NCBI GenBank assembly: GCA_964505325.1
Contig: CAZDHT010000004.1
Location: 1 to 55,730, forward strand
Direction of reading: 5' to 3'
From: an uncultured Planctomycetota bacterium
Lineage (GTDB): Bacteria > Planctomycetota > PUPC01
Length of the DNA: 55,730 bases
The notes below the pieces were generated by a model. It ran no database searches. It had not been told where the DNA came from and worked only from the letters and a program-made list of their open reading frames with translations. The position numbers were made by a program, and so were the translations under genes. Of this stretch, positions 26,256 to 55,730 are shown one piece after another. Position 1 is the first letter of the stretch. Each line of letters begins with the position of its first letter.

Positions 26256-27659
26256 ATGGCCGCAAAGAAATCATCCCTGCGACGGCGTTCGCTGCACGTG
26301 GTGATCGTGCTGCTGGTGTTCTACCCGATCGTTGTCTACATCTATTCCCAATCGGTGAACCGCGCCACCGCCGACGACATCGTCCTGCGGAACATCGACG
26401 ACGGGCTCCGCTACTGCTTTGACGTGAAGGCCGCCATCGAAGAGCTCCTGGAACTGCCCGAGGACAGCCCCATTGAACAGGACCACACCCTGGAACGGCT
26501 GAGGTACAAGCTGGAAGGGGACGCGTTCGAACGCAGACTGGAGGGACTTCTGTACCGGGGCGGAGTGACCGAGACGTTGGTCAGGTTCACCCAGATTTAC
26601 GACGGTGACGTCCGCCGTCTGCACTGGGGCCAGGAGCTGCCGGGGAAGATTCTGGATGATGTTGTGGTCAAGCGAGGGGAGCGCATTGACCGCGCGGCCC
26701 TGCGCGAGCGGGTGTTTCAGGTGACCTCGCGGGGCACGGCCCCGGGGACGTGCCGGATCACACTCCCGTTGGATCTGCCCGGCAAGCGGTCCTGCCGGCT
26801 GGTCGTGGGGCTGGTTTCACCCAACATCGGCTCGTATCTGGGCGCGCTTTCCGAGAAGCTGAGCATGCGGGCGCTGCGCCTGTCGCTGTTCGGTACGTCG
26901 TTGCTCGCCCTGCTCGCGGTGTACATCGTCTATCTCAACGACCGGACCCGCGAGCTGGAGCTGAAGCTCGAAGAAGAGAAGCGGCTGGCCTACGTGGGGA
27001 CCATCGCCGCCGGCATGGCGCACGAGATTCGCAACCCGCTCAGCTCGGTCAAGATGAACATCCAGATGATCGAGGATCGGCTGAGCGAGTTCGGCGAAAC
27101 GGAAAGCAAATACCTGATGAACAAGGTCGTCCGCATCCACCGCGAGACGGCGCGCCTGGAGGAATCGGTGAACAACTTTCTCGCGTTCGCCCGGCCGAAG
27201 CCATTGGAGCGCCGATGGGCCAACCTGAACCAGGCGATCGACAACGTCATCGAGTTCCTCGAGCCGGCCTGCATGAACGACGGCATCCGGATCGTCCGCG
27301 ACTACGCGCCCGACCTGCCGCAGGCGTACATCGACCCCGATCAGCTCGGCCAGGCGGTGGAGAACCTGGTTCGCAACGCGCAACAGGCCACCGGCAAGGA
27401 CGGCATCATCGAGATCTACACCGGCCGCCATGACGACCACCTCGAGATCCGCGTCTCGGACGACGGCCCCGGGATTCCGGCCGAGGACCAGGGCAACATC
27501 TTCGAGATATTCTTCACGACCAAGGAGGCGGGCAGCGGGCTGGGGCTGACCATCGTCAAGCAGATCGCCGAAGCGCACGGCGGCGGTGTTTCGTTCGATA
27601 CGATCGAGAAGCGCGGCACGACGTTCACCATCGGCCTCCCGGTCCGGGAAGCGCACTAA
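26256..27659 (+). CDS. membrane sensor histidine kinase (HisKA + HATPase_c)
   Basis: N-terminal TM segment, second TM segment, H-box GMAHEIRNPLSS, N/G boxes (NLVRNAQQA, DDGPGI, GSGLGLTIV). Confidence 0.9.
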   Translation: MAAKKSSLRRRSLHVVIVLLVFYPIVVYIYSQSVNRATADDIVLRNIDDGLRYCFDVKAAIEELLELPEDSPIEQDHTLERLRYKLEGDAFERRLEGLLYRGGVTETLVRFTQIYDGDVRRLHWGQELPGKILDDVVVKRGERIDRAALRERVFQVTSRGTAPGTCRITLPLDLPGKRSCRLVVGLVSPNIGSYLGALSEKLSMRALRLSLFGTSLLALLAVYIVYLNDRTRELELKLEEEKRLAYVGTIAAGMAHEIRNPLSSVKMNIQMIEDRLSEFGETESKYLMNKVVRIHRETARLEESVNNFLAFARPKPLERRWANLNQAIDNVIEFLEPACMNDGIRIVRDYAPDLPQAYIDPDQLGQAVENLVRNAQQATGKDGIIEIYTGRHDDHLEIRVSDDGPGIPAEDQGNIFEIFFTTKEAGSGLGLTIVKQIAEAHGGGVSFDTIEKRGTTFTIGLPVREAH

Positions 27660-27668
27660 CGAGGACAC

Positions 27669-29054
27669 ATGAGCGACTTCAGCACCGCGAACGAACGCAC
27701 CGTTCTAGTCGTGGACGACGATCGCACCGGCCGCGAGACGCTGGCCGAGGCGGTGAGCGAAATGGGCTACGAGGTCGCATCGGCGGCGGCCGGGCCCGAA
27801 GCGCTGGACATCCTCCGCCAGCGCGAGATCGACATCGTGCTGACTGATCTCAAGATGCCCGGAATGGACGGGCTTGAACTGCTGACCCGCGCCAAGCGAA
27901 TCCGCCCGGACGCGTTCGTTATCCTCGTCACCGCGTTCGCCACGGTCGACACCGCCGTCGAGGCGATGAAGAAAGGCGCCTACGACTACGTCATGAAGCC
28001 CATCGACCTGCGCAGGCTCCGCGTGCTGCTCGACCGGGCCAGTCACTCGCGCGACCTGCTCATCGAGAATGAACTGCTCAAGGATCAGCTCGGCGAGAAG
28101 TATGACTTCTCGAACATCATCGGCCGCAGTTCGGTGATGAAGAACGTGTACGAACGGATTCGGCAGGTCGCCAACACGCGGGCGGTCGTGCTGATCGAGG
28201 GAGAAAGCGGCACCGGCAAGGAACTGGTGGCCAACGCGATTCACATGAACTCCGACCGTCGCGACCAGCCGTTCATCAAGGTCAACTGCGCCGCTCTGCC
28301 GGCGACGTTGCTGGAGAGCGAGCTGTTCGGCCACGAGCGCGGCTCGTTCACCGGGGCGTTCGAACAGCGCAAGGGCCGGTTCGAACTGGCGGACGGCGGG
28401 ACCTTGTTCCTCGACGAGATCGCCGACCTGTTACCTGGGACCCAGGTGAAGTTGCTGCGCGTGTTGCAGAACTACGAGTTCGAGCGGGTCGGCGGCACGG
28501 AAACTCTCCGTGTCGACGTGCGCACCATTGCCGCCACCAACGCCGACCTGGCGGAGCGGGTCAAACAGGGCCGGTTCCGCGAGGACCTGTACTACCGGCT
28601 GCACGTGGTGCCCCTGAACCTGCCGCCCTTGCGCGAGCGACCCGAAGACATCCCGCTGCTCGTGTCGCACTTCGTGAAGCACTACGCAGAGCGGAACAGC
28701 AAGGACGTTCGCGGCGTCTCGGCGGAGGCGATGAACACGCTCACCACGTATTCCTGGCCGGGCAACGTGCGCGAGCTTCAGAACTGCGTCGAGAACATGG
28801 TCGTGATGTCGGGAAGCACGATGCTCGGGCCGGAGCTGCTGCCGACGGAGATGCAGCAGACCACGGTTGCCAGCGACCAGATCGGCTTCCCCATCGGCCT
28901 GTCGATGCGGCAGATCGAGGAGAAGGCCATCCGCGAGACCTTGGCCTCGGTCGGCGGCAACCGCAAGCGCGCCGCCGGCATCCTGGGGATCAGCCTCCGC
29001 ACCCTGCACCGCAAGATCATCGAGTACGGCATCGACCGGATACACAAAGGGTGA
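27669..29054 (+). CDS. sigma-54-dependent response regulator (NtrC family: REC + AAA+ + Fis-type HTH)
   Basis: REC (VLVVDDD...DLKMPGMDG), Walker A GESGTGKE, GSFTGA (GAFTGA-type sigma-54 contact loop) and a C-terminal HTH (KRAAGILGISLRTLHRKI). Confidence 0.92.
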   Translation: MSDFSTANERTVLVVDDDRTGRETLAEAVSEMGYEVASAAAGPEALDILRQREIDIVLTDLKMPGMDGLELLTRAKRIRPDAFVILVTAFATVDTAVEAMKKGAYDYVMKPIDLRRLRVLLDRASHSRDLLIENELLKDQLGEKYDFSNIIGRSSVMKNVYERIRQVANTRAVVLIEGESGTGKELVANAIHMNSDRRDQPFIKVNCAALPATLLESELFGHERGSFTGAFEQRKGRFELADGGTLFLDEIADLLPGTQVKLLRVLQNYEFERVGGTETLRVDVRTIAATNADLAERVKQGRFREDLYYRLHVVPLNLPPLRERPEDIPLLVSHFVKHYAERNSKDVRGVSAEAMNTLTTYSWPGNVRELQNCVENMVVMSGSTMLGPELLPTEMQQTTVASDQIGFPIGLSMRQIEEKAIRETLASVGGNRKRAAGILGISLRTLHRKIIEYGIDRIHKG

Positions 29055-29351: not shown

Positions 29352-29476
29352 TCTGTCTGACAATTGGGCAGACAGGAAGGGACTCCGCCGAAGCGGCTAT
29401 GTCCCTCTCGCGAAGGCGGATGTCTGCCCCACCATCCTGGCTAACTTGAGGGGTGGGGCAGGCATTCTTGCCTGCC
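29352..29476 (-). repeat. GC-rich multi-hairpin repeat, copy A (REP/BIME-like or small structured RNA)
   Basis: A 58-nt core is identical to 51151-51208, in inverted orientation. It contains GGGAC-ATAG-CCGC-TTCG-GCGG-A-GTCCC, the outer stem GGGCAGACA/TGTCTGCCC and the hairpin GGCAGGCA-AGAA-TGCCTGCC. Confidence 0.8.
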
Positions 29477-29850
29477 AAACCAGCCCCAACCAAGCACAGG
29501 CCATTTGCCGGACAGAGAGCAGCAAGGGGGAGGGAAGCGCCTGAACGGGACCGCACTCGTGGCCCCGCTGCAGCGCTCCTCCTTCGCTGCGCTCCCGTGT
29601 GCTGTGTGCCGGACGTTGCGGGCCTGCACCGGCCGAGGCCCGGCGGGCGTTGCGGGAAAACATCACGCCTAACTCGCTACGTAGCAAAGGCTTATGGGGA
29701 GGCCTCGGTTTCGGGGCGGGTCAGCGTTGCGTTAACGCGACATGGTGACGGGCGCAGATCAGCCCTCTGCAAAAGGCCTGTGTCGCATAAACCGCTGGTA
29801 AACAATCACTTACAGACGATCTCAGCCGTCCGGGCAGATTTCTGTGCTTT

Positions 29851-29866
29851 TGGCATGCCATTTGCT
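29851..29866 (+). promoter_or_regulatory. sigma-54 (-24/-12) promoter
   Basis: TGGCATG-CCAT-TTGCT versus consensus TGGCACG-N4-TTGCW. The GG and GC are correctly spaced. It lies 104 nt upstream of the small ORF and about 800 nt from the sigma-54 activator gene. Confidence 0.6.
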
Positions 29867-29969
29867 CCTGTGCCTACCGAAAGCCGCTCAAGGAAGGGCG
29901 GCGGATGGGCTGATTCGGAGAGACAAGAGGCGTGCGTGGTGCGCGCTGGAAGTCTGGGAGATAAGGGCG

Positions 29970-30134
29970 ATGAAGCGGCACGGTCACTGCAAGCACGAGC
30001 GAACGAGATTTCATTCCATCCAGCGGCTGGGGGATCAGCCGGCGATCGAGCTGCGGCAATGCCTGCTCTGCGACAGCACCATCGCGGTCCGCATAGCCGA
30101 GCCGGCCGCAGCCGGCGTCGCCGCGAGTCATTAA
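29970..30134 (+). CDS. 54-aa CxH...CxxC zinc-ribbon-like protein, family copy A
   Basis: MKRHGHCKHERTRFHSIQRLGDQPAIELRQCLLCDSTIAV.... Paralogous to 53336..53503 and 55278..55439, and flanked by its own promoter and terminator. Confidence 0.65.
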   Translation: MKRHGHCKHERTRFHSIQRLGDQPAIELRQCLLCDSTIAVRIAEPAAAGVAASH

Positions 30135-30336: not shown

Positions 30337-32700
30337 ATGATGAAGGCAGTTTTGACCGTCACCGGCGGTCCTCAACGCAGCCGCCAGTGGACGATAGACT
30401 CGGACGAACCGTTGACCATCGGGCGAGGCAGCGACGCTGACCTCGTCCTTCTCGACTCCGAAATCTCCCGTTCCCACTGCCGGGTCTCGTGCACCGACGG
30501 CCGCTGGCACATCGAGGATAACAGCAGCCTGAACGGCGTGTTCGTTAATGGCCGAAAGGTCGCAGAAGACGAGCTCCGACACGGGGACACGATCCGCGTC
30601 GGCAGCACCGGCCTCCGCTTCGATATCGCCGCCGAAGCAGTCGTCGAGCGGGCGCCGGAGGTGCCCGTCGCCACGGGCACGTGCAGCCGCTGCGGCCGCG
30701 AGATCCCGTCCGATTCAGAGACCTGCCCGGTGTGCGGCAGGAAGGCGCCTTTCGAGGCTCTCGGCGTAGCAGAGGAGTTGACGCAGCCAGCGGCGCTCAA
30801 GGAAGAGCCGGTGAGGTTGGGCGAGCCGCGCAGACCGGCCGCTCCTCCCGAGGTCGTCGCGGCGCCCCGGGTCGTCCGCATCGAACAAGAAAACACGGTG
30901 CAGGAGTTCATCGAGAGGCACCCGCACGACACCTCGAACATCGTCCTCACCCGCAGGCAGAAGCTGTGGTATCTGCTGGTCATCGCGGCGTTCATTCTGC
31001 TGCTGAACGTGGACTACCTCTACTTCCTCCAGGTCGTTCATCTGCTGTGCATGTTCTACCTGGTGGTCATCGCGTACAAACTGGTCACCATCTTTCTCTC
31101 CGTCGTCAAGAAGTGGGAAATACAGGTCCAGCCCCACGAGATCGCCGCGTTCAAAGACGCTGAGCTGCCGATGTACACCATCCTGGTGCCGCTGTACAAA
31201 GAGACCGAGGTGGTCAACAAAATCGTCCGGCACATCTCCGAGTTCGACTATCCGAAGGACAAGCTGGACGTGAAGATATTGCTTGAGCCCGACGATCCGG
31301 GGACGCTGGAAGCCATCCAGCAGACTGGGCTGCCGGGCTTCTGCGAGGTCATCGTGTGTCCGGACTCGAAGCCGAAGACGAAGCCGAAGGCCTGCAACCA
31401 CGGCCTGGCGCGCGCTCGCGGCAGGTATACGGTCATCTACGACGCCGAGGACCGGCCGGAGCCCGACCAACTCAAGAAGGCGGTGGCGGGATTCCGCAAG
31501 GCCGAGGAGCGGTGGGAGAAGGGCCGCTGGCTCCGGCGCCTCAATCCGTTCGCCCGGGCCGAGGGCGGCCGCCCGGTGTGCCTGCAGGCGAAGCTCAACT
31601 ACTACAACCCGGACCAGAACCTGCTGACACGCTGGTTCACCATCGAGTACGCCACGTGGTACCAGCTTTACCTCCCCGGCTTGCACGCGCTGCGGGCGCC
31701 GATCCCGTTGGGAGGAACGTCGAACCACTTCCGCACCGACATGTTGCAGGAGATCGGCGGGTGGGATCCGTTCAATGTAACCGAAGACTGCGACCTGGGC
31801 ATCCGCATTCACAAGCTGGGCTATCGCACCCGGGTGCTCGACAGCACGACCTGGGAGGAGGCGAACTCCCAGGTCGGCAACTGGGTCCGGCAGCGGTCGC
31901 GCTGGGTGAAAGGGTACATCCAGACACATTTCACGCACATGCGCCATCCGTTGCGCACACTGTGGAAGTTGCACCCGTTGGGCATGTTCCACTTTCTCAA
32001 TTCCGTCGGCGGCCTGTCCGTCATGCTGCTGCTCAACCCCATCTTCTGGCTGAGTTCGCTCCTGTACGTCGGCCTGTTCACGATGGACCTTCACGAGCAC
32101 GGCTATTCGTTCGAAAAGGCGCTGGGTGTCGAAGAAGCTTTTCGGGACGCGACCGATCCGGACATCCCCGACCGGACCGTCCGGATACCGCATCCCAGCC
32201 GGTGGGCGTGGCCGATCATATGCGGCGCGCTGCCGGACGTGATGCCGCCCAAGGCAACGTGGAAGCAGAAGGTGTGGTCGGCGATCAAGGAGGACTGGCG
32301 TCACACGTGGCACGGGAGTTGGGCCCCGCCTCCGCCGCTTGAGAGCAGGGATTTCGCGGCAGGCGAGGGCCCGCTGATCAGCCCCCCGGCCTACGAGCAC
32401 GATCCGTGGCGCGAGATGTGGGCGCACCGGGGCTTTCATTTCTGGAACATGGCCTCCCAGGTCTTCTTCGTGGTAACCATCGTTCTCGTGGTTGGCAACT
32501 TCTTCTTCATGTTGATCCACGTCGTCGCGTGTCTCCGGGCGGGCATGCCGAAGATGATCCCCCTTGCCATTGTGATGCCGCTGTACTGGGTGCTGATCAG
32601 CGTGGGGGCGTGGAAAGGATTCCTGCAGTTGTTCCGGAGACCGTTCTACTGGGAGAAAACCCAGCACGGGCTGGACTTGAAGGCGGCGAAGGGCCAATGA
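30337..32700 (+). CDS. FHA domain + zinc ribbon + processive family-2 glycosyltransferase (cellulose/PNAG/chitin-synthase-like), polytopic membrane protein
   Basis: FHA: TIGRGSDADLVL.DSEISRSHCRV...NSSLNGVFVNG. CSRCG...CPVCG. GT2: ILVPLYKE, YDAEDRP, TEDCDLG, QRSRW (QxxRW). Multiple TM segments on both sides. Confidence 0.88.
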   Translation: MMKAVLTVTGGPQRSRQWTIDSDEPLTIGRGSDADLVLLDSEISRSHCRVSCTDGRWHIEDNSSLNGVFVNGRKVAEDELRHGDTIRVGSTGLRFDIAAEAVVERAPEVPVATGTCSRCGREIPSDSETCPVCGRKAPFEALGVAEELTQPAALKEEPVRLGEPRRPAAPPEVVAAPRVVRIEQENTVQEFIERHPHDTSNIVLTRRQKLWYLLVIAAFILLLNVDYLYFLQVVHLLCMFYLVVIAYKLVTIFLSVVKKWEIQVQPHEIAAFKDAELPMYTILVPLYKETEVVNKIVRHISEFDYPKDKLDVKILLEPDDPGTLEAIQQTGLPGFCEVIVCPDSKPKTKPKACNHGLARARGRYTVIYDAEDRPEPDQLKKAVAGFRKAEERWEKGRWLRRLNPFARAEGGRPVCLQAKLNYYNPDQNLLTRWFTIEYATWYQLYLPGLHALRAPIPLGGTSNHFRTDMLQEIGGWDPFNVTEDCDLGIRIHKLGYRTRVLDSTTWEEANSQVGNWVRQRSRWVKGYIQTHFTHMRHPLRTLWKLHPLGMFHFLNSVGGLSVMLLLNPIFWLSSLLYVGLFTMDLHEHGYSFEKALGVEEAFRDATDPDIPDRTVRIPHPSRWAWPIICGALPDVMPPKATWKQKVWSAIKEDWRHTWHGSWAPPPPLESRDFAAGEGPLISPPAYEHDPWREMWAHRGFHFWNMASQVFFVVTIVLVVGNFFFMLIHVVACLRAGMPKMIPLAIVMPLYWVLISVGAWKGFLQLFRRPFYWEKTQHGLDLKAAKGQ

Positions 32701-48281: not shown

Positions 48282-48358
48282 GCGCCCGTAGCTCAATTGG
48301 ATAGAGCGCCGGTCTACGGAACCGGAGGTTGGGGGTTCGAGCCCCTCCGGGCGTGCCA
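48282..48358 (+). tRNA. tRNA-Arg (anticodon ACG)
   Basis: 77-nt cloverleaf folded by hand: acceptor GCGCCCG/CGGGCGT, D arm GCTC/GAGC, anticodon stem CCGGT/ACCGG with loop CTACGGA, T arm GGGGG-TTCGAGC-CCCTC. CCA is encoded. Confidence 0.9.
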
Positions 48359-48577: not shown

Positions 48578-48767
48578 CACACTCCCTGAGCGCGGCCCCC
48601 ACTTGCTCCGCCAGACGAGGTCGAGAATTGAATGACCCTTGTGCTTCGGCCGCACGGTTGCAGGCCACGCCCAATCCTGCTATAAGAACGCCCAATCGAT
48701 CAGGAGCCAAGCCGACACTCTGGAAAGCATAAATGCCACGACGCAATTGGGACGGGGCCAACTCGCG

Positions 48768-49380
48768 ATGTTAGCTGCGGTGCTGCATGATCAGGAAGAT
48801 CTTCGCGTGCAGGAGGTTCCCACGCCGTGCATTTCCGAGGACGAAGTGCTGCTCCGCTGCCGGGCGGTGTCGATATGCGGGACGGACTTGCGGATTTACC
48901 GTGTCGGCCACAGCCGTTTGCCGCCCAGGACCCGGCGGATCCTGGGACACGAGCTTGCCGGAGAGATCGCCGAAGTCGGGCGGAATGTCCAAGACCTGGC
49001 GGAGGGCATGCGGGTGGCCGTCGCGCCGAACTTCGGCTGCGGGAGCTGCCGGATGTGCCGGCGGGGCTGGTTCCACCTGTGCCCGGAATACGGAGCCATC
49101 GGCCTCACGGTGGACGGCGGCATGGCCGAATACGTTCGCATTCCGAAGATCGCAGTGCAGCAGGGCTGTCTGCTCGAGATGCCCGCCGACCTACCTTCGA
49201 AGAGGCCGCCGTCAACGAGCCTTTCGCCTGTATTTACAACGGGCAGACGCGCTGTCCGACGCAGCCGGGAGACGTGGTGCTGATAGTGGGCGCCGGTCCC
49301 ATCGGGATGATGCACGTTCTAATGGCTCGTCTCGCCGGGCCGGCCGGAATTATGGTTGCCAACCGGCTGGCCGGCTACAA
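48768..49380 (+). pseudogene. Zn-dependent alcohol/sorbitol dehydrogenase (MDR family), frameshifted and 3'-truncated
   Basis: GHELAGEIAEVG and CGSCRMCRRGWFHLC in frame 0. The sequence continues as FEEAAVNEPFAC...VGAGPIGMM in another frame after a 1-nt loss at CCTTC (about 49196). Similarity is lost about 49380 (end approximate). Confidence 0.7.
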
Positions 49381-49559
49381 CGGCGACGCCGCCATCATCA
49401 CCGAGCCCACCGGGCTGCGGCTCTATCACGCCCACCGGGGATTCCGCATCGTGCACCTCACCCTGAGAGGGAAGAGCGGCATGGACTTCTCGGAGGGGCA
49501 ACTGCCCAATCCGGTCGAACACGTCGGCCTGCTCATCGAGGGCTTCAAGACGTTCCGTC

Positions 49560-50104
49560 AGCAACGCCGTGACGCCGCACCCAGGCCCCCGGAATACGCC
49601 GGCGTCGATAATCCCGTGCCTCTCTTCATGAACAAGCTCCAGGCCGGCGAGTTCAGCCTCAACATCCCGATGCAGATCCCCGAAACCTGCACCCTCGAGA
49701 TCTATTGGCAGACCATGCCGGGCGAGACGCGCGAGGCCGTCGAGCGCGAGTTCTTCGACTTCCTGGGCGGCTGGGTCGATGAACACCCCGCGCTGAGGCA
49801 GTTCGAAATCGAGCATCGGTTCAGCCATCGCTGGATGCCGGGCACGCGCATCGACCGCGGCAGCCCCATCGTCCGGGCGGCCGAGACTGCCGCCACCCGC
49901 GTGCTTGGCGAGCCGGTGAAGGTCACCGGGGCCCCGTACCCGTGCGACCTGTTTGTCTTCAACCTGTGGGGCATACCGGGCGTTCTGTTCGGGCCACAGG
50001 GTGCAGGCGCCCACGGCTCGGATGAGTACGTGGAGATCGACTCGGTGGTCAAGGCGGCCCAGGTGCTGGCGTTGACCATGATCCGGTTCTGTGGCGTGGC
50101 GTGA
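49560..50104 (+). pseudogene. M20 peptidase / ArgE-DapE-type deacylase, C-terminal fragment only
   Basis: ...FMNKLQAGEFSLNIPMQIPETCTLEIYWQTMPGE...GAPYPCDLFVF...GAHGSDEYVEIDSVVKAAQVLALTMIRF resembles the last third of M20 enzymes. There is no N-terminal catalytic half. The start is approximate. Confidence 0.55.
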
Positions 50105-50117
50105 GGGGAAGGCGGCA

Positions 50118-51052
50118 ATGGACGTGATTTGCTTCGGCAGCATAGTGGTGGATCACCGGCGCTCCGCAGAGACGTCCGGGACCGCGGCCGAGCCGCTCCG
50201 GATCGTCGATAGCGCCATCGACCTTCACGTGGGCGGCGTCCCCATCCTGGCGACCACGCTGCGGCGCATGGGCTTCGACGTCGCTCTGATGGGCTGCGTC
50301 GGACACGACATCGCCGGATATGGCCTGAAGCTCTATTTGGAGAACGAGATCGGGCTGAATGTCGAGGCGGTCAAGACCATTGACGCGCCGACCAGCACCT
50401 CCTGCATCCGATTGACGGAAGAACAGCGCTACGTCGACCACACCCCGGCGCCAGCGCGGAACTGGCGCCCGGCGATCGGGAGCTGGCCTTCGTCGAGAAA
50501 CACAAGCCGAAGCTGATGGCCATCGGGTACGCGGGCCTGCTTCCCAAGCTGGACGCGGACCGCGGCCGGAAGATGGCCGAGTGGATCGTAGCGGTTCAGC
50601 AGAAAGGGACGCTGGTCGCTCTGGACACCCACACCGTTCCGCCATACGCGATGCTGGAAAAACCCGTCGGCGTGGCGGACGTCTTCATCTGCAACAGGGA
50701 AGAAGCCTGCGGGATCACGGGGCCCGGCAAGGATTCCCCCGAGAAGGGCCTGGCCGCCATCTGGTCGAAGTTCCGCGCCCGCGATCCATCACGCTATCGG
50801 CTGTTGGGCTTGGCGATGGCCGAGGGAGTGCAGTTGGCTTACGGTCACGCAGGGGAGTTCGCCAATCAGTGGATCGCCAACCCGCATTTCGGCACGTTCA
50901 CGCCCGCCGACCTGACCGGCGCCGGCGATTACTTCCGCGCGGGGGTATATGCCTCGATAATGCGCCAACTGAGGGAGTTCGCCTCCGGTCAATTGAACCT
51001 GGTCCGGACGGGCCTTGCCGGCCACGACGTAGCCTACCAGCAGCTTCGATAA
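50118..51052 (+). pseudogene. PfkB-family sugar kinase with a frameshift
   Basis: MDVICFGSIVVD...GG...A..L.R.G in frame 0 and ...DVFICNREEA...TGAGDYF in frame 2. The frames join if one C is added to the C run at 50443-50446. Confidence 0.7.
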
Positions 51053-51150
51053 CGCCGCCCTTCCCGCAGCAGTTACCCACCATTGTTGTGTCCGTGCGAT
51101 GCCGCGAAGCTTCAGGTTGCCTAAGGAACTCTCACGAAACGGTGAGGCGA

Positions 51151-51236
51151 ACATCCGCCTTCGCGAGAGGGACATAGCCGCTTCGGCGGAGTCCCTTCCT
51201 GTCTGCCCGGTGACAGACAAGAATGCCTGCCCCACC
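51151..51236 (+). repeat. GC-rich multi-hairpin repeat, copy B
   Basis: ACATCCGCCTTCGCGAGAGGGACATAGCCGCTTCGGCGGAGTCCCTTCCTGTCTGCCC is identical to the reverse complement of 29369-29426. Followed by GGTGACAGACAAGAATGCCTGCCCCACC. Confidence 0.8.
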
Positions 51237-52029
51237 GAGGGAAAGGAACGGCATTAGAGCTTATCCAACAACCCTGAGCGTTGTTCACCCTCAGCCGTCT
51301 CTGGGACTCGTAAGCCCCTCTTTCAGAGGCTCTTACGCAAACCGCTGGCTGGCATTAACATTGTCCGACACAACACGCTGTCAAGCAAAGAGTTACGCCT
51401 TTATAGTGTGCCTGGCACACTCTAGAAGTGCAACATGTTGGCAGTCAAGCACTTGCAAACGGAGCATGCAATCCCCCACGTTGGGAGGCAGGGTTCTTGG
51501 ATGGCCTCTCAGTGGGGCGTACATTCTTGTCCGCCACCGGGAAGCTCAGCGGCAAATGCATAACTTCTTCTTTTTGGGCGAGTTGTGTACGGCCTCTGTG
51601 GCCCCGTTGGCGGAAGTCTGGCGTTGTGGTGTTGAGATGAGTTGACGGAAGAGCTGTCCGCCTCCACGCGCTGTCCGGCCCCAACGTACCCGACGCACGG
51701 TGCCGGGGAGCACCATCGTATCCCCTGCAAACGTCACAGGTTAGAGAAAACCGCACGGACAGCGTGTTTTTTTGGCAACGTCCGGTGCTCTGCGCCGCCC
51801 TCGGACTGAAAGCGATCCGGTGTCGTAACATCTTGCGCAACAATGCGTTAAGGCCTTGTTACAATAACATACAAGGCCTCGGCACGCGGTTTGCTCTTAC
51901 GGTGGGCAACTGCTGTGAAGCTTTGAGAGGGTAGCGCCTCTTATGGTCTATGGCACCGCAGTCGGGCGTCAACATAGAAGAGCGGAAGAAACCGGCCTCG
52001 GGTGCGAAGGAGGGGAAAGGGAGGTCCTT

Positions 52030-52209
52030 ATGACGTAGGGGACAGGGGAGGAGGAAAGCCCTGTAAACGGGGGGCTTTACGCGGCATGGCGAGCCGCGGC
52101 AGGCATTTGAGGACAGACCGCCGCGTCGCATCAGGACGGTGCGGTCTACGCCCTCGCCCCGGACGGGACACCGGACGTTTTCCTCCAGTGATCTGACCGA
52201 ACAGGTCGG
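52030..52209 (+). repeat. structured module R1
   Basis: Shares with R2 a G-rich 5' block, the hairpin CGCGGC-N7-GCCGCG (52080-52098) and an identical 24-mer GCCCTCGCCCCGGACGGGACACCG (52150-52173). Confidence 0.7.
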
Positions 52210-52767
52210 AACCACACCACACATCCCTTGGTCCAGGTGAGCGGCATGGCGTACCCCGCCGCACCGGGCTTCCGGTGTTCGGGCAGGCGCACGTGCGGGG
52301 GGACGGGCCGTGCGAAAGGCCGCAACGGCGCCTGAGTTGAGCGCTCACCAGCGGTGTCCCACATTCGCCAAGCGAAGGGGGAACGGCGCCATGCGAGCCC
52401 CGTCCGGCGGCGAAAGCGGCCGGGCGGGCTTAGCGAGCGAGGGAAGAGCAGCACAGACCTCGTGAGCAGTGGACAAGGAGCCCGGCCAACCCTGGAAGAA
52501 GGGAGATACGGCGGTAATGCGGACGGGATAGCCGCGGCAGCCATCGGAAGGGGCTCGCCGAAGCGTGGCGAGTGGCGATGCGTCGCTGACTATTCGTGGG
52601 AATGGAGGGGCTCTTCAACGGGGGAGACCACTCCAATCAAGCTAAAGCACCGGCTGCGCGGAGACTTCTTTCCGCGCGTCAGCCGGGCCGGAGGGCGGCA
52701 GATCCGGACGCCCCGTGCGACAGATCGACGTCGGCCTCCAGCGAAGAGTAGGAAAGGAGTCAAGGGA

Positions 52768-52945
52768 GTGACATAAGGGGATGGGGAAGGAGGAAAACCC
52801 CGCAACGGGGAAGGCCCTCGCGGCTTGGCGGGCCGCGACGGGCTCTCGAGAGGGAGAAGCGGGGGCCGTTGGCCGGCCCCTGCTTCAGCCCTCGCCCCGG
52901 ACGGGACACCGCAAACCACTTCCACTGACCTGGCGGACAGACGGG
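52768..52945 (+). repeat. structured module R2
   Basis: Paralogue of R1: hairpin at 52819-52837, identical 24-mer at 52888-52911. Confidence 0.7.
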
Positions 52946-53206
52946 GACTAGGCGCGGCGCGCGAGGAGCACAGCGCCGCCGCGACGGGCGTTCACGGCGC
53001 GTAAAGACCGCCGCCGCACCGTCCGGCCGGGGTTGTCGGACCAACGCGCCACCCGACCCGGCAACGCCGACGGCCCGCCAGGTCCCGTTCACTTACCTCC
53101 CAGACAGTTGTGGGCAGAACAGGCGCAACAATCGCAGCCATTTGCGCATCAGACAGGGGCTTCCCCCGCCTTCCGCACGGAAATTGCGAAAAAGGAGGCG
53201 TTACGT

Positions 53207-53248
53207 GTGATCAGACCAGATCGAGGAGCAGGGCCGCTCGCGGCGTAG
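53207..53248 (+). CDS. candidate 13-codon leader ORF (MIRPDRGAGPLAA) overlapping the terminator stem
   Basis: AAGGAGG (53192-53198) lies 8 nt before the GTG. Codons 9-12 form the 5' arm of the terminator. A GTG-TGA start-stop at 53205-53210 is an alternative reading. Confidence 0.25.
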   Translation: MIRPDRGAGPLAA

Positions 53249-53265
53249 CGAGTGGCCCTTTTTTT
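53231..53265 (+). terminator. strong intrinsic terminator
   Basis: GGGCCGCTCGC-GGCGTA-GCGAGTGGCCC (11-bp stem with one G-T pair) followed by TTTTTTT. Confidence 0.8.
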
Positions 53266-53335
53266 GTCCGAACGGAGGCTGGACGCATGAACGGTGGTCC
53301 GCCCGCCTGCCCGCGAGGGAGAAAGGAAAGAAGCA

Positions 53336-53503
53336 ATGCCACCCACAAAGATCTGCCGCCACGAAGGAGCTCGATTTCACTGCGTGCAGCGGCTGGGCAA
53401 CCTGCCGCCCGTCGAGCTCTGGCACTGTCCGACGTGCAAGAGCACGGTCTCGATCGAGGGCGCTTGTGCGGCGCCCGCGGCCCATCGCCGTGACGCGATC
53501 TGA
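53336..53503 (+). CDS. 55-aa CxH...CxxC zinc-ribbon-like protein, family copy B
   Basis: MPPTKICRHEGARFHCVQRLGNLPPVELWHCPTCKSTVSIEG.... Purine-rich GAGAAAGGAAAG upstream. Confidence 0.6.
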   Translation: MPPTKICRHEGARFHCVQRLGNLPPVELWHCPTCKSTVSIEGACAAPAAHRRDAI

Positions 53504-53688
53504 CGCACGGCGGCGAGCAAACCCTCCGGCGCCTGCGGAGGGAGAAAGGAGAACTGCCAATGGCGTGAACGATGGAGCAATCGGAGCGCAGGGACACACG
53601 GTCCGTGCGCTGGGCAAGGCCGCTCACGGCGCAGTGAGCGGTCGAACGTTGTGTTGGAACCGCTGTTCCAAATCAAGGAGACGCAGCA

Positions 53689-54408
53689 ATGTCTTTGGAA
53701 ATGGACGAAGTAAGTACTTTGCTGGATAAGGCTACCATCGGGGACCTGATCGAACTCGCGCTGAAGAGCAAGGGGGGCGAGCTCAGCATCGCCACGAAGC
53801 CGGAAGCCGTCTTCCGCAGAGAAGGCGAGACCTGGGTGCTCCAGTTTGCCGGCAAGACGGTGTACGCCAAGGACCGAATCGGGCTGGAGTACATCAGCTA
53901 CCTCTTGGCGAACCCCGGGAACGCTGCCCCCGTGATGTCGCTTTACCTGGCCGTGACGGGTGGGCTGAACGGCTTTGCAGCCACGCGCCGCCGCTCAAAG
54001 CACGACGCGCAGCACGAGCTGAACGGGTGGCAGATCTCGCGCGCGGGAACAGCCGAGGTGCTCGCCGACCCGGCTGCCCTGGCCGAATGCCGCGAAAGAC
54101 TGCGGGAAATCGAAGCAGAGCTCGCGCAGGCCCAGGCGCAGAACGACGAGGCGCGGGCGCTCCGCCTGAAGGAGGAGCAGGAAGGACTGCTCCGGTACCT
54201 CAACGCGTGCAACCGCCTCGATGGCCGGCTCCGGCAGGTGGCCGATGTCCGGGAAAAGATCCGCAAGTCGGTCTCCAATGCGATCTCCCGGGCGATTTCG
54301 GTTATCTTGGACGACCACGAGGTGCTCGGGCGCCATCTGAGCAACAGCATCAAGACCGGCTATAAGATGGTGTACAATCCGGAAACGCCCGTCGAGTGGC
54401 ATCTCTGA
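53689..54408 (+). CDS. hypothetical protein, N-terminal FRREGE.W...F.G......D..GL.YI..LL..PG motif plus coiled-coil region
   Basis: 239-aa ORF with AAGGAG 7 nt upstream and normal composition, including a Glu/Ala/Leu-rich heptad-like segment (ECRERLREIEAELAQAQAQNDEARALRLKEEQEGLL). Confidence 0.65.
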   Translation: MSLEMDEVSTLLDKATIGDLIELALKSKGGELSIATKPEAVFRREGETWVLQFAGKTVYAKDRIGLEYISYLLANPGNAAPVMSLYLAVTGGLNGFAATRRRSKHDAQHELNGWQISRAGTAEVLADPAALAECRERLREIEAELAQAQAQNDEARALRLKEEQEGLLRYLNACNRLDGRLRQVADVREKIRKSVSNAISRAISVILDDHEVLGRHLSNSIKTGYKMVYNPETPVEWHL

Positions 54409-54692
54409 GCTGTTGTCGGCAGGCTTAAAATAGCGCGGCCCTGAAAAAAATGGGGCCGTCCACAGGCCGCATTGCAGGCCCAGTGTGGGGGGCCATCTCC
54501 GGCTCTACCGGGGTGTCACACTGGGGGCTCGCACTGGGGCAAAACCGTTCCATAGCACCCCTGCGGGCCTTTCATGCCGTCTCCGCCAGCGCGGCTCTCG
54601 GCGCCGACGGCCGGTCAGGCCGTCGTGTTTCTCCCGATCCTCCCCGCTCCACCCTCCGGCAGATCCAAAAAAAAACGGGCCGCGCGCCATTT

Positions 54693-54728
54693 GCTACACC
54701 ACTTGTAGCACTGCTACACGATTTGTAC
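54693..54728. promoter_or_regulatory. two tandem operator-like inverted repeats
   Basis: GCTACA-CCACT-TGTAGC (54693-54709) and GCTACA-CGATT-TGTACC (54712-54728), about 135-170 nt upstream of the 54861 start. Confidence 0.5.
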
Positions 54729-54860
54729 CGCATAGGGTAGTGAGGGGTAGAGCCCCATCGGTGTAAACGTACGCGGCCTGTCTCCGTCCAGCCGGGTCGG
54801 CTGGCGGGGCGGCCGCACAGTGACGGGTCGCGAGCGGGCCCGTCGAAAGGAGATGAGGAG

Positions 54861-55130
54861 ATGGAAGTCCTCTTGGCGGCTCTCGCCACATTGGGAGCGA
54901 CGCTGCTCCTGATGTTCGGGGGCATTGTCCTGGTTGGCGGCGTCGTTTGGCTGTGCTCTTGGTGGCTGACGCGGGAAGAGGTGGCCCGGTTCGGGAACCA
55001 CAAGGCCTTCTGGCCCGGCTCTCGCGCCGCCTCGGCGCCCACGTCGATGGGGCCGGACAAGGCGCCGGTCTTTGGCGGCGTGTCCCTGAAAAAGGCCGGT
55101 CCCGAGCAGACCCGGCGCCGCGCGGCCTAG
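54861..55130 (+). CDS. small membrane protein (one or two N-terminal TM segments)
   Basis: 89-aa ORF with AAAGGAGATGAGGAG just upstream. MEVLLAALATLGATLLLMFGGIVLVGGVVWLCSWWL hydrophobic N-terminus and a basic tail. Confidence 0.6.
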   Translation: MEVLLAALATLGATLLLMFGGIVLVGGVVWLCSWWLTREEVARFGNHKAFWPGSRAASAPTSMGPDKAPVFGGVSLKKAGPEQTRRRAA

Positions 55131-55151
55131 GGCCTGTGACGCAGTTTCGGC

Positions 55152-55243
55152 GGGGCAGGCGTCCGCCTTCGCGAGAGGGACATAGCCGCTTCGGCGGAGT
55201 CCCTTCCTGCCTGCCCGGTGGCGGATACGAATGTCCGCCGCAC
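55152..55243 (+). repeat. GC-rich multi-hairpin repeat, copy C
   Basis: Same central hairpin as copies A and B. The outer stem GGGCAGGC/GCCTGCCC and the 3' hairpin GGCGGATA-CGAA-TGTCCGCC carry compensatory changes relative to copy A. Confidence 0.8.
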
Positions 55244-55277
55244 ATTTGGTTGGAGTTCTTCAGAAGGAGGAATATCC

Positions 55278-55439
55278 GTGGCACCCAGAGAGCCCTGTCA
55301 TCACGAACGCGCCCGGTTCTTTTGCGTGCAGCAGCTCGGCAGCCTGCCGGCGGTCGAGCTCTGGCACTGCCCGACGTGCAAGAGCACGATCTCGGTCGAG
55401 GGCGTCCGCCGAGCGGCCAAGCGGCCCGCTGCGGCGTAG
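55278..55439 (+). CDS. 53-aa CxH...CxxC zinc-ribbon-like protein, family copy C
   Basis: GTG start 7 nt after AAGGAGG. (M)APREPCHHERARFFCVQQLGSLPAVELWHCPTCKSTISVEG.... Confidence 0.6.
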   Translation: MAPREPCHHERARFFCVQQLGSLPAVELWHCPTCKSTISVEGVRRAAKRPAAA

Positions 55440-55618
55440 CGGTCGCCACAGACGCCGTGCTGCGACCGGGTTCCGTGCGTACCCGGTAGGTGGCACGGGA
55501 AGCGCGGACGGAGAAACGCGGAATTGGCATGAGCATGACGCCGGCCCGGCGGGGAGACCTGTCGGGCGGGACCAGGAGCAAGCGGCCGGGCGCGTGGCCC
55601 GGCAAGGAGGCAACAACG

Positions 55619-55720
55619 ATGACGAGCGGCGTGAACACAGGCAGTTTCCAAAACGCGTTCGGCCCACACGGCCGAATGGAGGGGAAAGGAGGCGTGGCGT
55701 ATGACCTGATTCGGGAGTGA
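55619..55720 (+). CDS. 33-aa hypothetical peptide
   Basis: ATG 8 nt after AAGGAGG. MTSGVNTGSFQNAFGPHGRMEGKGGVAYDLIRE. No family recognised, and it lies close to the window end. Confidence 0.35.
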   Translation: MTSGVNTGSFQNAFGPHGRMEGKGGVAYDLIRE

Positions 55721-55730
55721 GCGGGGCTTG

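Follow-up and report, generated by a model that had tools for sequence, protein, structure and literature searches.

The DNA analysed here, a 55,730-nt stretch from an uncultured Planctomycetota bacterium (the window in what follows), contains at positions 51237-53265 a block of about 2 kb which a first, sequence-only reading had proposed to be a large structured RNA or a complex leader. The block begins directly after copy B of a repeat (51140-51236) and closes with a 12-bp stem and T7 at 53230-53265, both edges lying where that reading had drawn them, and it is followed on the plus strand by genes for a zinc-ribbon protein and a 239-aa protein. It is the part of the window poorest in open reading frames (ORFs). 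As had been noticed, no ORF of more than 140 aa overlaps it; the longest stop-free frame per position has a median of 146 codons in the block against 531 in the whole window, and both of the longest window stretches without an open frame of more than 160 codons (51175-51861 and 52345-53004) fall there. The block is a composite of upstream DNA (51140-51880), which is AT-richer and resembles repeats and miniature inverted-repeat transposable elements (MITEs), a sigma-54 promoter, two tandem copies of an RNA element that we call E1, and an element E2. It is probably not one giant RNA, and is likely to represent instead the control region and the very long untranslated leader of a PEP-CTERM gene cluster. 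The features of the leader and the genes that follow it are:

51880-51895, plus strand: sigma-54 (-24/-12) promoter CGGCACGCGGTTTGCT, one mismatch to TGGCACG-N4-TTGCW.

52018-52220, plus strand: E1 copy A, 175 bits with covariance model R1; Shine-Dalgarno (SD) sequence 52019-52024; mini-ORF ATG ACG TAG 52030-52038; closing stem P1 52038-52047 with 52151-52160; junction GGAGGAAA 52050-52057; hairpins H1 52059-52072, H2 52074-52104 (loop AUGGCGA), H3 52115-52147 and H4 52192-52210; invariant tail GGACGGGACACCG 52161-52173; CCUCC 52182-52186.

52398-52428, plus strand: hairpin CCCCGTCCGGC-GGCGAAAGC-GGCCGGGCGGG, of the type of the first hairpin of the PEP-CTERM leader 'E3', the remainder of which is degenerate here.

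52650-52686, plus strand: long GC-rich hairpin containing GCGCGGA-N8-TCCGCGC (52656-52677), local folding z-score -3.5; its sole change in the sister-organism contig L017 lies in the loop.

52753-52953, plus strand: E1 copy B, 201 bits with model R1, folding z-score -4.1; SD 52753-52759; mini-ORF GTG ACA TAA 52768-52776; closing stem P1 52777-52786 with 52889-52898; hairpins H1 52798-52810, H2 52814-52843 (loop UUGGCGG) and H3 52856-52886; invariant tail 52899-52911; CUUCC 52919-52923.

53191-53265, plus strand: E2 element; SD AAAGGAGG 53191-53198; start-stop GTG TGA 53205-53210; GGCGUA-loop hairpin 53230-53259; T7.

53336-53503, plus strand: zinc-ribbon protein gene copy 1 (55 aa, CxH...CPxC), the first ORF after the block.

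53545-53643, plus strand: second E2 element; SD; mini-ORF ATG GCG TGA 53560-53568; GGCGCA-loop hairpin 53618-53643.

53689-54408, plus strand: gene of the 239-aa protein, preceded by E1/E2 in related loci, E1 being absent from L021.

The block is non-coding. None of its ten largest ORFs matched Pfam, and the codon-periodic conservation by which a hidden gene would betray itself was not found: every frame is interrupted by stops and by single-base indels (at 52268, 52513, 52619 and 53093) in L017 and L027, two sister-organism contigs with 92-93% identity to the window. Substitutions relative to L017 are distributed over the three phases as 34/25/20 in the block part 52108-53265, and as 10/4/25 in the gene of the 239-aa protein (third position 25/39). 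Known RNA families are likewise missing. A search of the whole window with Rfam 15 brought only two tRNAs to the gathering threshold and gave no match at E <= 5 in 50900-53800, which bears out the earlier statement that the block resembles no RNase P, tmRNA, SRP, 6S RNA, group II intron or riboswitch; RNase P, prompted by GGAGGAAAG, was rejected by the same database. The E1-bearing leaders of the related loci L025 and L018 gave chance matches only (E 6-9).

The promoter stands at the head of the leader. Its core GGCAY-N5-TTGC occurs only twice in the window, at 51880-51895 and at 29852, and once each in L018, L025 and L026, there upstream of E1 on the plus (coding) strand; in these four sequences it is found solely upstream of E1 or of a third zinc-ribbon paralog, always on the plus strand. 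L027 has retained the GGCAC and TTGC cores, with changes in the bases beside them. The motif sits 144 nt before the E1 closing stem, and the start of transcription is predicted near 51906, about 12 nt past the -12 element. Thus the complex leader of the first reading is supported, since the conserved promoter is followed by two E1 elements and the E2 hairpin/terminator, and since the related loci, too, have E1 and E2 elements after the promoter and ahead of their ortholog of the 53689 gene. A possible activator is encoded in the window itself, where a histidine kinase (26256-27659) precedes an NtrC-type sigma-54-dependent response regulator (27669-29054; AtoC 513 bits, PEP_resp_reg 416 bits). 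The latter resembles the PEP-CTERM regulator PrsR but remains below the family cut-off (416 versus 502.6 bits), and it may act on the promoter at 51880-51895. The second promoter, TGGCATGCCATTTGCT at 29852, is identical to that of L018; a mini-ORF ATG GGC TGA lies 40 nt downstream and is followed by the third zinc-ribbon paralog (29970-30134), this whole region (29852-30134) being placed just upstream of an FHA-glycosyltransferase (cellulose-synthase-like) gene at 30337-32700.

E1 is a previously undescribed candidate RNA family, absent from Rfam. The two paralogous modules that had been noticed in the block are 72% identical (nhmmer E 7e-9 to 3e-11) and have in common an exact 24-mer, at 52150 and 52888, for which shuffled sequences give an expectation of 0. 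By means of nhmmer and the covariance model R1 (scores 116-205 bits), E1 was found upstream of the ortholog of the 239-aa gene in L018/L019 (47% amino acid identity), L025 (45%) and L020 (53%, cut by the contig end), as well as in L024, beside the end of a PEP-CTERM gene, and weakly in L026. The related loci possess one E1 in leaders of 420-810 nt; the tandem arrangement with a spacing of 738 nt was seen only in the window species. All confident copies carry the same E1 tail, CCCGGACGGGACACCG. When 185,579 reference genomes were scanned with the 20-mer CTCGCCCCGGACGGGACACC, ten loci were returned, all of them chance matches inside unrelated coding sequences encoding LAPDGTP, with no RNA family at the matched sites and one tRNA elsewhere in L009. 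Viral contigs gave a single chance match, and a metagenome scan with GCCCTCNNCCCGGACGGGACACC retrieved three contigs only, of which two belong to the same organism or to a sister organism. The L024 element (reverse strand, about 1470-1700) has a longer H3 region; it is flanked on one side by a divergent gene and on the other by a convergent PEP-CTERM gene, whose 3' end faces it.

Both copies of E1 appear to be under constraint. Relative to L027 they have accumulated 4.9 (A) and 5.0 (B) substitutions per 100 nt, compared with 9.1 for the block and 20.7 for the spacer between promoter and copy A; copy B shows 5.0 relative to L017. In the model-based alignment 81% of the cells are paired, versus 73% in shuffles (reached by 0/500) and 45-50% when the partners are slid; thirteen pairs change on both sides, and the covariation score is 0.188 versus 0.119 (0/500). 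A hand alignment shows at least two pair types for all 8 pairs of H2 around the fixed loop (A/U)UGGCG(A/G), and H3 and H4 as hairpins in every copy with unrelated sequences; H2 and H3 thus clearly covary, above the level of the controls. The many G.U pairs point to the plus strand. A lack of conservation and covariation would have spoken against an RNA; since both were found, the RNA idea survives for the modules. The exact fold given for the junction is tentative, because RNAalifold offers alternative pairings, of GGAGG with the downstream CCUCC or of GAGGG with CCCUC.

These observations bear on whether the conserved features might act as DNA, that is, as sites for a sigma-54 activator, for IHF or for an attC-like recombinase. 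Enhancer sites would indeed be expected in the first part of the block, given the sigma-54 promoter that follows it; GTCCGGCC is found ahead of the promoters of three loci, and palindromes are typical of operators. The E1 and E2 helices, however, pair through G.U, which would be A.C mismatches on the other strand, their stems vary while the loops stay fixed, both elements are downstream of the promoter, and no integrase or recombinase was found in any locus, so that we consider this explanation very improbable. The integron attC-like reading of the repeated hairpins was rejected, as there is no integrase and the G.U pairs are strand-specific.

A single large structured non-coding RNA of OLE, GOLLD or ROOL type, occupying the whole 1.4-2 kb, would agree with the long ORF-free region, the many predicted hairpins and the strong closing terminator, and long ORF-free, hairpin-rich regions are what the block has in common with OLE, GOLLD, ROOL and HEARO. 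Unlike these, it has no Rfam match (at E <= 5-10), is not conserved as a unit and consists partly of promoter-upstream DNA. Beyond the species, conservation is limited to the pieces of about 200 nt (E1) and about 30 nt (E2), with a single E1 in the shorter related leaders; the sequence between these pieces is poorly kept, reaching 20.7 substitutions per 100 nt in a relative that is 92% identical overall; and the first 640 nt are upstream of the only conserved promoter. The dense secondary structure that had been reported is present as local peaks and absent as a uniform excess of folding energy: the mean folding z-score of 150-nt windows is -1.26 in the block versus -0.61 outside, and z <= -3 is reached solely at 51475, 51850, 52600 and 52750. 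The giant RNA is thus largely refuted and hardly credible. The individual palindromes and hairpins on which it had been built were all recovered at their positions, including AGACCGC/GCGGTCT at 52115-52147, which is H3 of E1 copy A, and the hairpin at 52554-52572; the hairpin near 52858 is real and has 13 bp (52856-52886) instead of the 11 bp first given.

A very short reading frame accompanies E1. The pattern of an SD, a start codon, zero or one codon and a stop has 16 matches in the window on both strands, five of which lie in 52030-55709 on the plus strand, while a sixth is the one downstream of the promoter at 29852. At the closing stem of four divergent E1 copies it takes the forms ATG ACG TAG, GTG ACA TAA, ATG TAG and ATG GCG TAG, and in all four the stop codon touches the stem. 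The mini-ORFs of copies A and B differ at three positions, all of which keep the start, a synonymous Thr codon and the stop. Ribosomes may occupy these mini-ORFs and give them a role in the leader, as we infer from their sequence and position. In E. coli, ribosomes are known to bind start-stops, and these to influence expression (Meydan et al., 10.1101/520783). Such minimal upstream ORFs (10.1101/520783; uRBS study PMC13285730) have in common with ours a strong SD, a start, zero or one codon and a stop; they are too short to yield a protein and are thought to be regulatory. Unlike them, the present ones are conserved in divergent loci, always in the same place against an RNA helix, and occur several to a leader. 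Few cases of a conserved start-stop mini-ORF in physical contact with an RNA helix are as clear as this locus.

E2 closes the block. Its hairpin (53230-53265 with the tail) has a 12-bp stem, of which 9 pairs are GC, and a loop of 6 nt, and T7 follows directly, as is usual in intrinsic terminators; it is predicted to act as one, or as an attenuator. Compared with L027, the stem shows a compensatory C-G to U-A change and a change from G.U to G-C. The second E2 hairpin lies 46 nt before the 239-aa gene, and in five loci E2 hairpins of 8-12 bp with loop GGCG(U/C/G)A and covarying stems are placed 45-130 nt before that gene; the T-run is limited to the first E2 of the window and its orthologs. The E2 hairpin and other shared pieces recur in the 'E3' leaders before PEP-CTERM genes, and the hairpin at 52398-52428 matches sequence just past the PEP-CTERM stop codons in L018, L019 and L020 and at 55546 in the window. 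'E3' is conserved at 55541-55730 of the window and beyond (L013 1830-2240), in L018 (13761-14130), in L020 (2440-3002) and in L017 (4532-4919). It is formed by a hairpin with compensatory changes right after the preceding stop, a second hairpin and a GGCGUA-loop hairpin, and contains a mini-ORF ATG ACC/ACG TGA within ATGNNNTGAYTCGGGAG; the ORFs of 63-66 aa that gene callers annotate on it look spurious.

We favour, as the likely reading of these data, that the block consists of upstream regulatory DNA and an untranslated leader of about 1.8 kb belonging to a sigma-54-dependent operon at the head of a PEP-CTERM (exosortase-cargo) cluster, whose most likely function, judged from the order of its elements, would be the cis-regulation of read-through and translation into the operon. 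Sigma-54-dependent transcription would proceed from about 51906 through the leader, and the transcript would fold into two tandem E1 elements of about 200 nt, multi-stem junctions with a UUGGCGR-loop H2, each also bearing the invariant 3' tail, the downstream CCUCC and an SD with a mini-ORF whose stop lies at the closing stem. Next, the GGCGNA-loop hairpin of E2 with its U-tract would serve as intrinsic terminator or attenuator, and the zinc-ribbon gene, the second E2, the 239-aa gene and the PEP-CTERM genes would follow. In this way E1 and E2 would decide in cis whether RNA polymerase and ribosomes reach the downstream genes, with the E2 hairpin/terminator and the loading of ribosomes on the mini-ORFs as effectors; from its place on the mini-ORF a ribosome would be able to open the closing stem of E1. 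The data themselves show the promoter motif with its conserved position, the conservation and covariation of E1 and E2, and the lack of coding in the block; from this arrangement we infer that the leader is transcribed, as well as the sense of the regulation, a possible ligand or protein partner and a function of the mini-ORFs. With respect to its relatives, the window leader appears to have E1 duplicated in tandem and an extra unit of E2 and zinc-ribbon gene inserted before the 239-aa gene. Its mode of action may be processive antitermination as in EAR, that of a new riboswitch or that of a protein-binding leader. A more specific proposal, in which E1 would be a new class of ligand- or protein-sensing RNA gating sigma-54 PEP-CTERM expression, with a mini-ORF ribosome melting the closing stem and the GGCGNA-loop hairpins (H2, E2) binding the zinc-ribbon or the 239-aa protein, is unlikely.

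Several points weigh against a regulatory leader. The transcript, its 5' end and its termination at 53265 are all predictions. P1 is conserved yet without compensatory change, only 4-5 independent full-length E1 sequences are available, and the covariation tests used a model-fitted alignment. Copy B has no promoter motif of its own, and in L027 two substitutions disrupt H3 of copy A, so that one E1 copy may be decaying. The E1 of L024 has no recognisable sigma-54 motif or mini-ORF and a different gene context, and in L021 E1 is missing although the 239-aa gene and E2 are present. In all loci a distance of 270 nt or more separates E1 from the following start codon, and H4 is without U-tract, so that no classical expression platform is visible. 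The PEP-CTERM array of L018 contains no canonical terminators on the plus strand, where the only two matches in this locus lie just past the upstream gene and at the start of a 76-aa gene. Finally, the 'mid' segment (52221-52752) has a weak third-position-like bias relative to L017 (21/13/7, p ~0.03) in the frame of the ORF 52354-52776, which is broken in L017; it could be due to chance or have been left by a former gene. That 52354-52776 still hides a coding sequence was rejected, since L017 has two frameshifts and three stops there.

Some of these points would suit E1 copies that are free-standing small RNA genes, acting in trans or in a ribonucleoprotein, for instance with the zinc-ribbon or the 239-aa protein. 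This is true of the distance of at least 270 nt to the next ORF without obvious expression platform and of the L024 copy, which stands by itself with a divergent gene on one side and a convergent PEP-CTERM gene on the other; moreover, GGCG-loop hairpins recur in H2 and E2, as a protein-binding motif would, and two uncharacterised small proteins always co-occur with E1. We consider such genes unlikely, because no terminator follows E1 in any locus, four loci agree in the orientation of E1 and in its order relative to promoter and 239-aa gene, and copy B is without its own promoter.

A cis-acting leader finds partial parallels in known systems. Upstream of proteobacterial PEP-CTERM genes, large non-coding regions and sigma-54 sites have been described by Haft et al. 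2006 (PMC1569441), together with two short DNA motifs, confined to Proteobacteria, which end on average 71 nt before the start codon; the non-coding regions outside that proteobacterial class stay unexplained in that work. The present locus shares with the proteobacterial system the large non-coding regions, the -24/-12 promoter and the nearby NtrC-type response regulator and histidine kinase. It differs in a leader of 0.4-1.8 kb with conserved RNA structures, in belonging to the phylum Planctomycetota and in a regulator below the PrsR cut-off. It gives a testable architecture for another phylum, namely a sigma-54 promoter, E1, mini-ORFs with E2, and the genes. If E1 regulates, it would be among the very few regulatory RNAs known in Planctomycetota and would link sigma-54 control with RNA-level control of cell-surface/biofilm proteins.

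Among RNAs, the EAR and phage put elements, which mediate processive antitermination in cis (PMC7858274), are similarly structured RNAs within or heading a long exopolysaccharide or surface-polymer operon, placed upstream of intrinsic terminators and not adjoining a start codon, as in the order promoter, E1 and terminator (53230) found here. In contrast to this likeness, Rfam finds no similarity of sequence or structure, and the pattern of promoter, E1 and terminator is absent in L018. With riboswitch and attenuator leaders, such as the cyclic di-GMP riboswitches ahead of biofilm or surface genes, E1 shares promoter-proximal multi-stem junctions, invariant single-stranded nucleotides, variable peripheral hairpins, and alternative pairings of an SD-like GGAGG with an anti-SD-like CCUCC. 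Unlike riboswitches, it matches no known class and is not directly followed by a terminator or ORF start; an expression platform coupled to E1 was found in none of the loci.

The DNA between the left edge and the promoter, 51237-51880, is likely to be promoter-upstream DNA, made of repeat/MITE debris and possible regulator sites, since the sigma-54 promoter lies at 51880-51895. The lower GC reported for the first part of the block is real (0.525-0.55 across 51200-51600 and 51700-52000, against 0.63-0.70 in the flanks), and from about 51900 onward the plus strand is purine-rich. This part includes, besides a CGTAAG/CTTACG hairpin at 51309-51337 and the palindromes CAACATGTTG (51431-51440) and TTGCGCAA (51833-51840), the following features, REP standing for repetitive extragenic palindromic:

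51140-51236, plus strand: REP-like repeat copy B, the left boundary of the block, with core CGCGAGAGGGACATAGCCGCTTCGGCGGAGTCCCTTCCTG.

51203-51544, no strand: MITE-like unit with 37-nt inverted arms (51203-51239 / 51508-51544), 81% complementary, enclosing 268 nt.

51405-51421, no strand: perfect 8+1+8 palindrome AGTGTGCC-T-GGCACACT.

51753-51775, plus strand: weak terminator-like hairpin, 5 bp then T7, a type of site no more frequent than in shuffles.

51851-51879, no strand: 9-bp inverted repeat AGGCCTTGT-N11-ACAAGGCCT, abutting the promoter.

The REP-like repeat has three copies in the window, at 29366-29477 (minus), 51140-51236 (plus) and 55148-55243 (plus), with 0 expected from shuffles. 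The three share an identical 40-nt core, copy A (29366-29477) is about 110 nt from a tRNA-Glu, and a hairpin module GGCAGGCAAGAATGCCTGCC changes side relative to the core between copies. The MITE-like arm is part of this repeat and recurs in the window, the full unit does not; since no target-site duplication was identified around it, the assignment of 51203-51544 as a MITE is tentative. REP elements and MITEs are likewise short structured repeats scattered through intergenic DNA, here with 37-nt inverted arms 268 nt apart; unlike in typical cases, neither a target-site duplication nor a transposase relative was identified, and the comparison covers 51140-51544 only.

The palindrome at 51405-51421 looks like a candidate operator. 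It is flanked by divergent sigma-70-like -10/-35 matches (51378-51407, plus; 51448-51419, minus), and in L027, the 92% relative, its arms are kept and the central base alone is changed. The small palindromes of this part are only partly conserved in L027, and partial erosion of the 3' arm of the repeat at 51851-51879 suggests weak constraint there. The 8-mer GTCCGGCC is present upstream of sigma-54 promoters at 51673-51680 in the window, at 8351-8358 in L018 and at 1685, 1782 and 1976 in L026, and GCTGTCCG/CGGACAGC occurs three times within 51653-51764; both may be activator-binding sites, with a significance that is not established. A search for a shared activator site upstream of four sigma-54 promoters returned short words only (GTCCGGCC, CGTTAAG and TTGCGCAACA), of uncertain significance.

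The block might also be debris without present function, composed of duplicated leader pieces, repeat/MITE insertions and decayed genes in a pseudogene graveyard. The genes at 48639-51052 are fragmentary or frameshifted; at repeat copy C the repeat ends 36 nt before a zinc-ribbon ORF, to which the block compares as a 2.1-kb expansion; the 'mid' segment is a degenerate E3 leader; and in L027 several palindromes of the first part are eroded and H3 of copy A is damaged. Debris would not explain why the two E1 copies change at about half the rate of the remaining block, why the sigma-54 core has been kept and the terminator hairpin too, the hairpin through compensatory change, or why the promoter-E1-E2 architecture is shared with loci whose proteins are only 45-53% identical. 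We therefore judge it improbable as an account of the block.

The genes downstream of the leader encode families with few known members. In the window the order is zinc-ribbon gene, 239-aa gene, an 89-aa membrane protein, repeat copy C, a second zinc-ribbon gene and a secreted protein past the window end. In the homolog contigs the 239-aa gene is followed by the small membrane protein, the zinc-ribbon gene and arrays of PEP-CTERM proteins, an order read where the contig is long enough (L017-L020 and L026), with the small membrane protein, the zinc-ribbon or both present. One downstream protein of L018 passes TIGR02595 (23.1 versus a cut-off of 16), and weak precomputed PEP_exosort_dom matches mark the downstream arrays in L017-L020 and L026. 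The first PEP-CTERM gene of the window starts beyond its end, its signal peptide being visible in L013. No exosortase gene was seen in the window or in the related contigs examined.

Pfam and NCBIfam gave nothing on the 239-aa, zinc-ribbon or small membrane proteins, nor on the ORFs of the block. The 239-aa protein has about 10 homologs among 5.8 billion proteins, one of them named as a Planctomycetota metagenome-assembled genome; a profile search of this family against PDB returned coiled-coil noise only, and the AlphaFold model has a predicted local distance difference test score (pLDDT) of 50.8. The zinc-ribbon gene is present in all related loci and has paralogs at 55278-55439 and 29970-30134 in the window; a search of the same 5.8 billion proteins gave two matches only, and hence no new loci were gained. 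The family (53-62 aa) is characterised by C-x-H ... C-P-x-C and the motif RF..QRLG..P.ELW, with members in L018 (10320-10481), L020 (1511-1675), L025 (1884-2072) and L021 (3572-3733). The small single-pass membrane protein (74-90 aa), conserved between the 239-aa and zinc-ribbon genes, ends in RRR(M)AA and is encoded at 54861-55130 in the window (89 aa), in L017 (2760-3029), L018 (10060-10290), L020 (1248-1472) and L026 (3363-3635).

Upstream of the block, a tRNA-Arg(ACG) gene (48282-48358) is followed by a run of gene fragments up to 51052. Those at 48639-51052 comprise an alcohol dehydrogenase (ADH) reduced to its GroES-like N-terminal domain, the C-terminal part of an M20 peptidase preceded in its frame by nonsense sequence, and a PfkB kinase whose sequence is divided between two frames. 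The whole segment 48282-51052 looks like a decaying island beside a tRNA gene.

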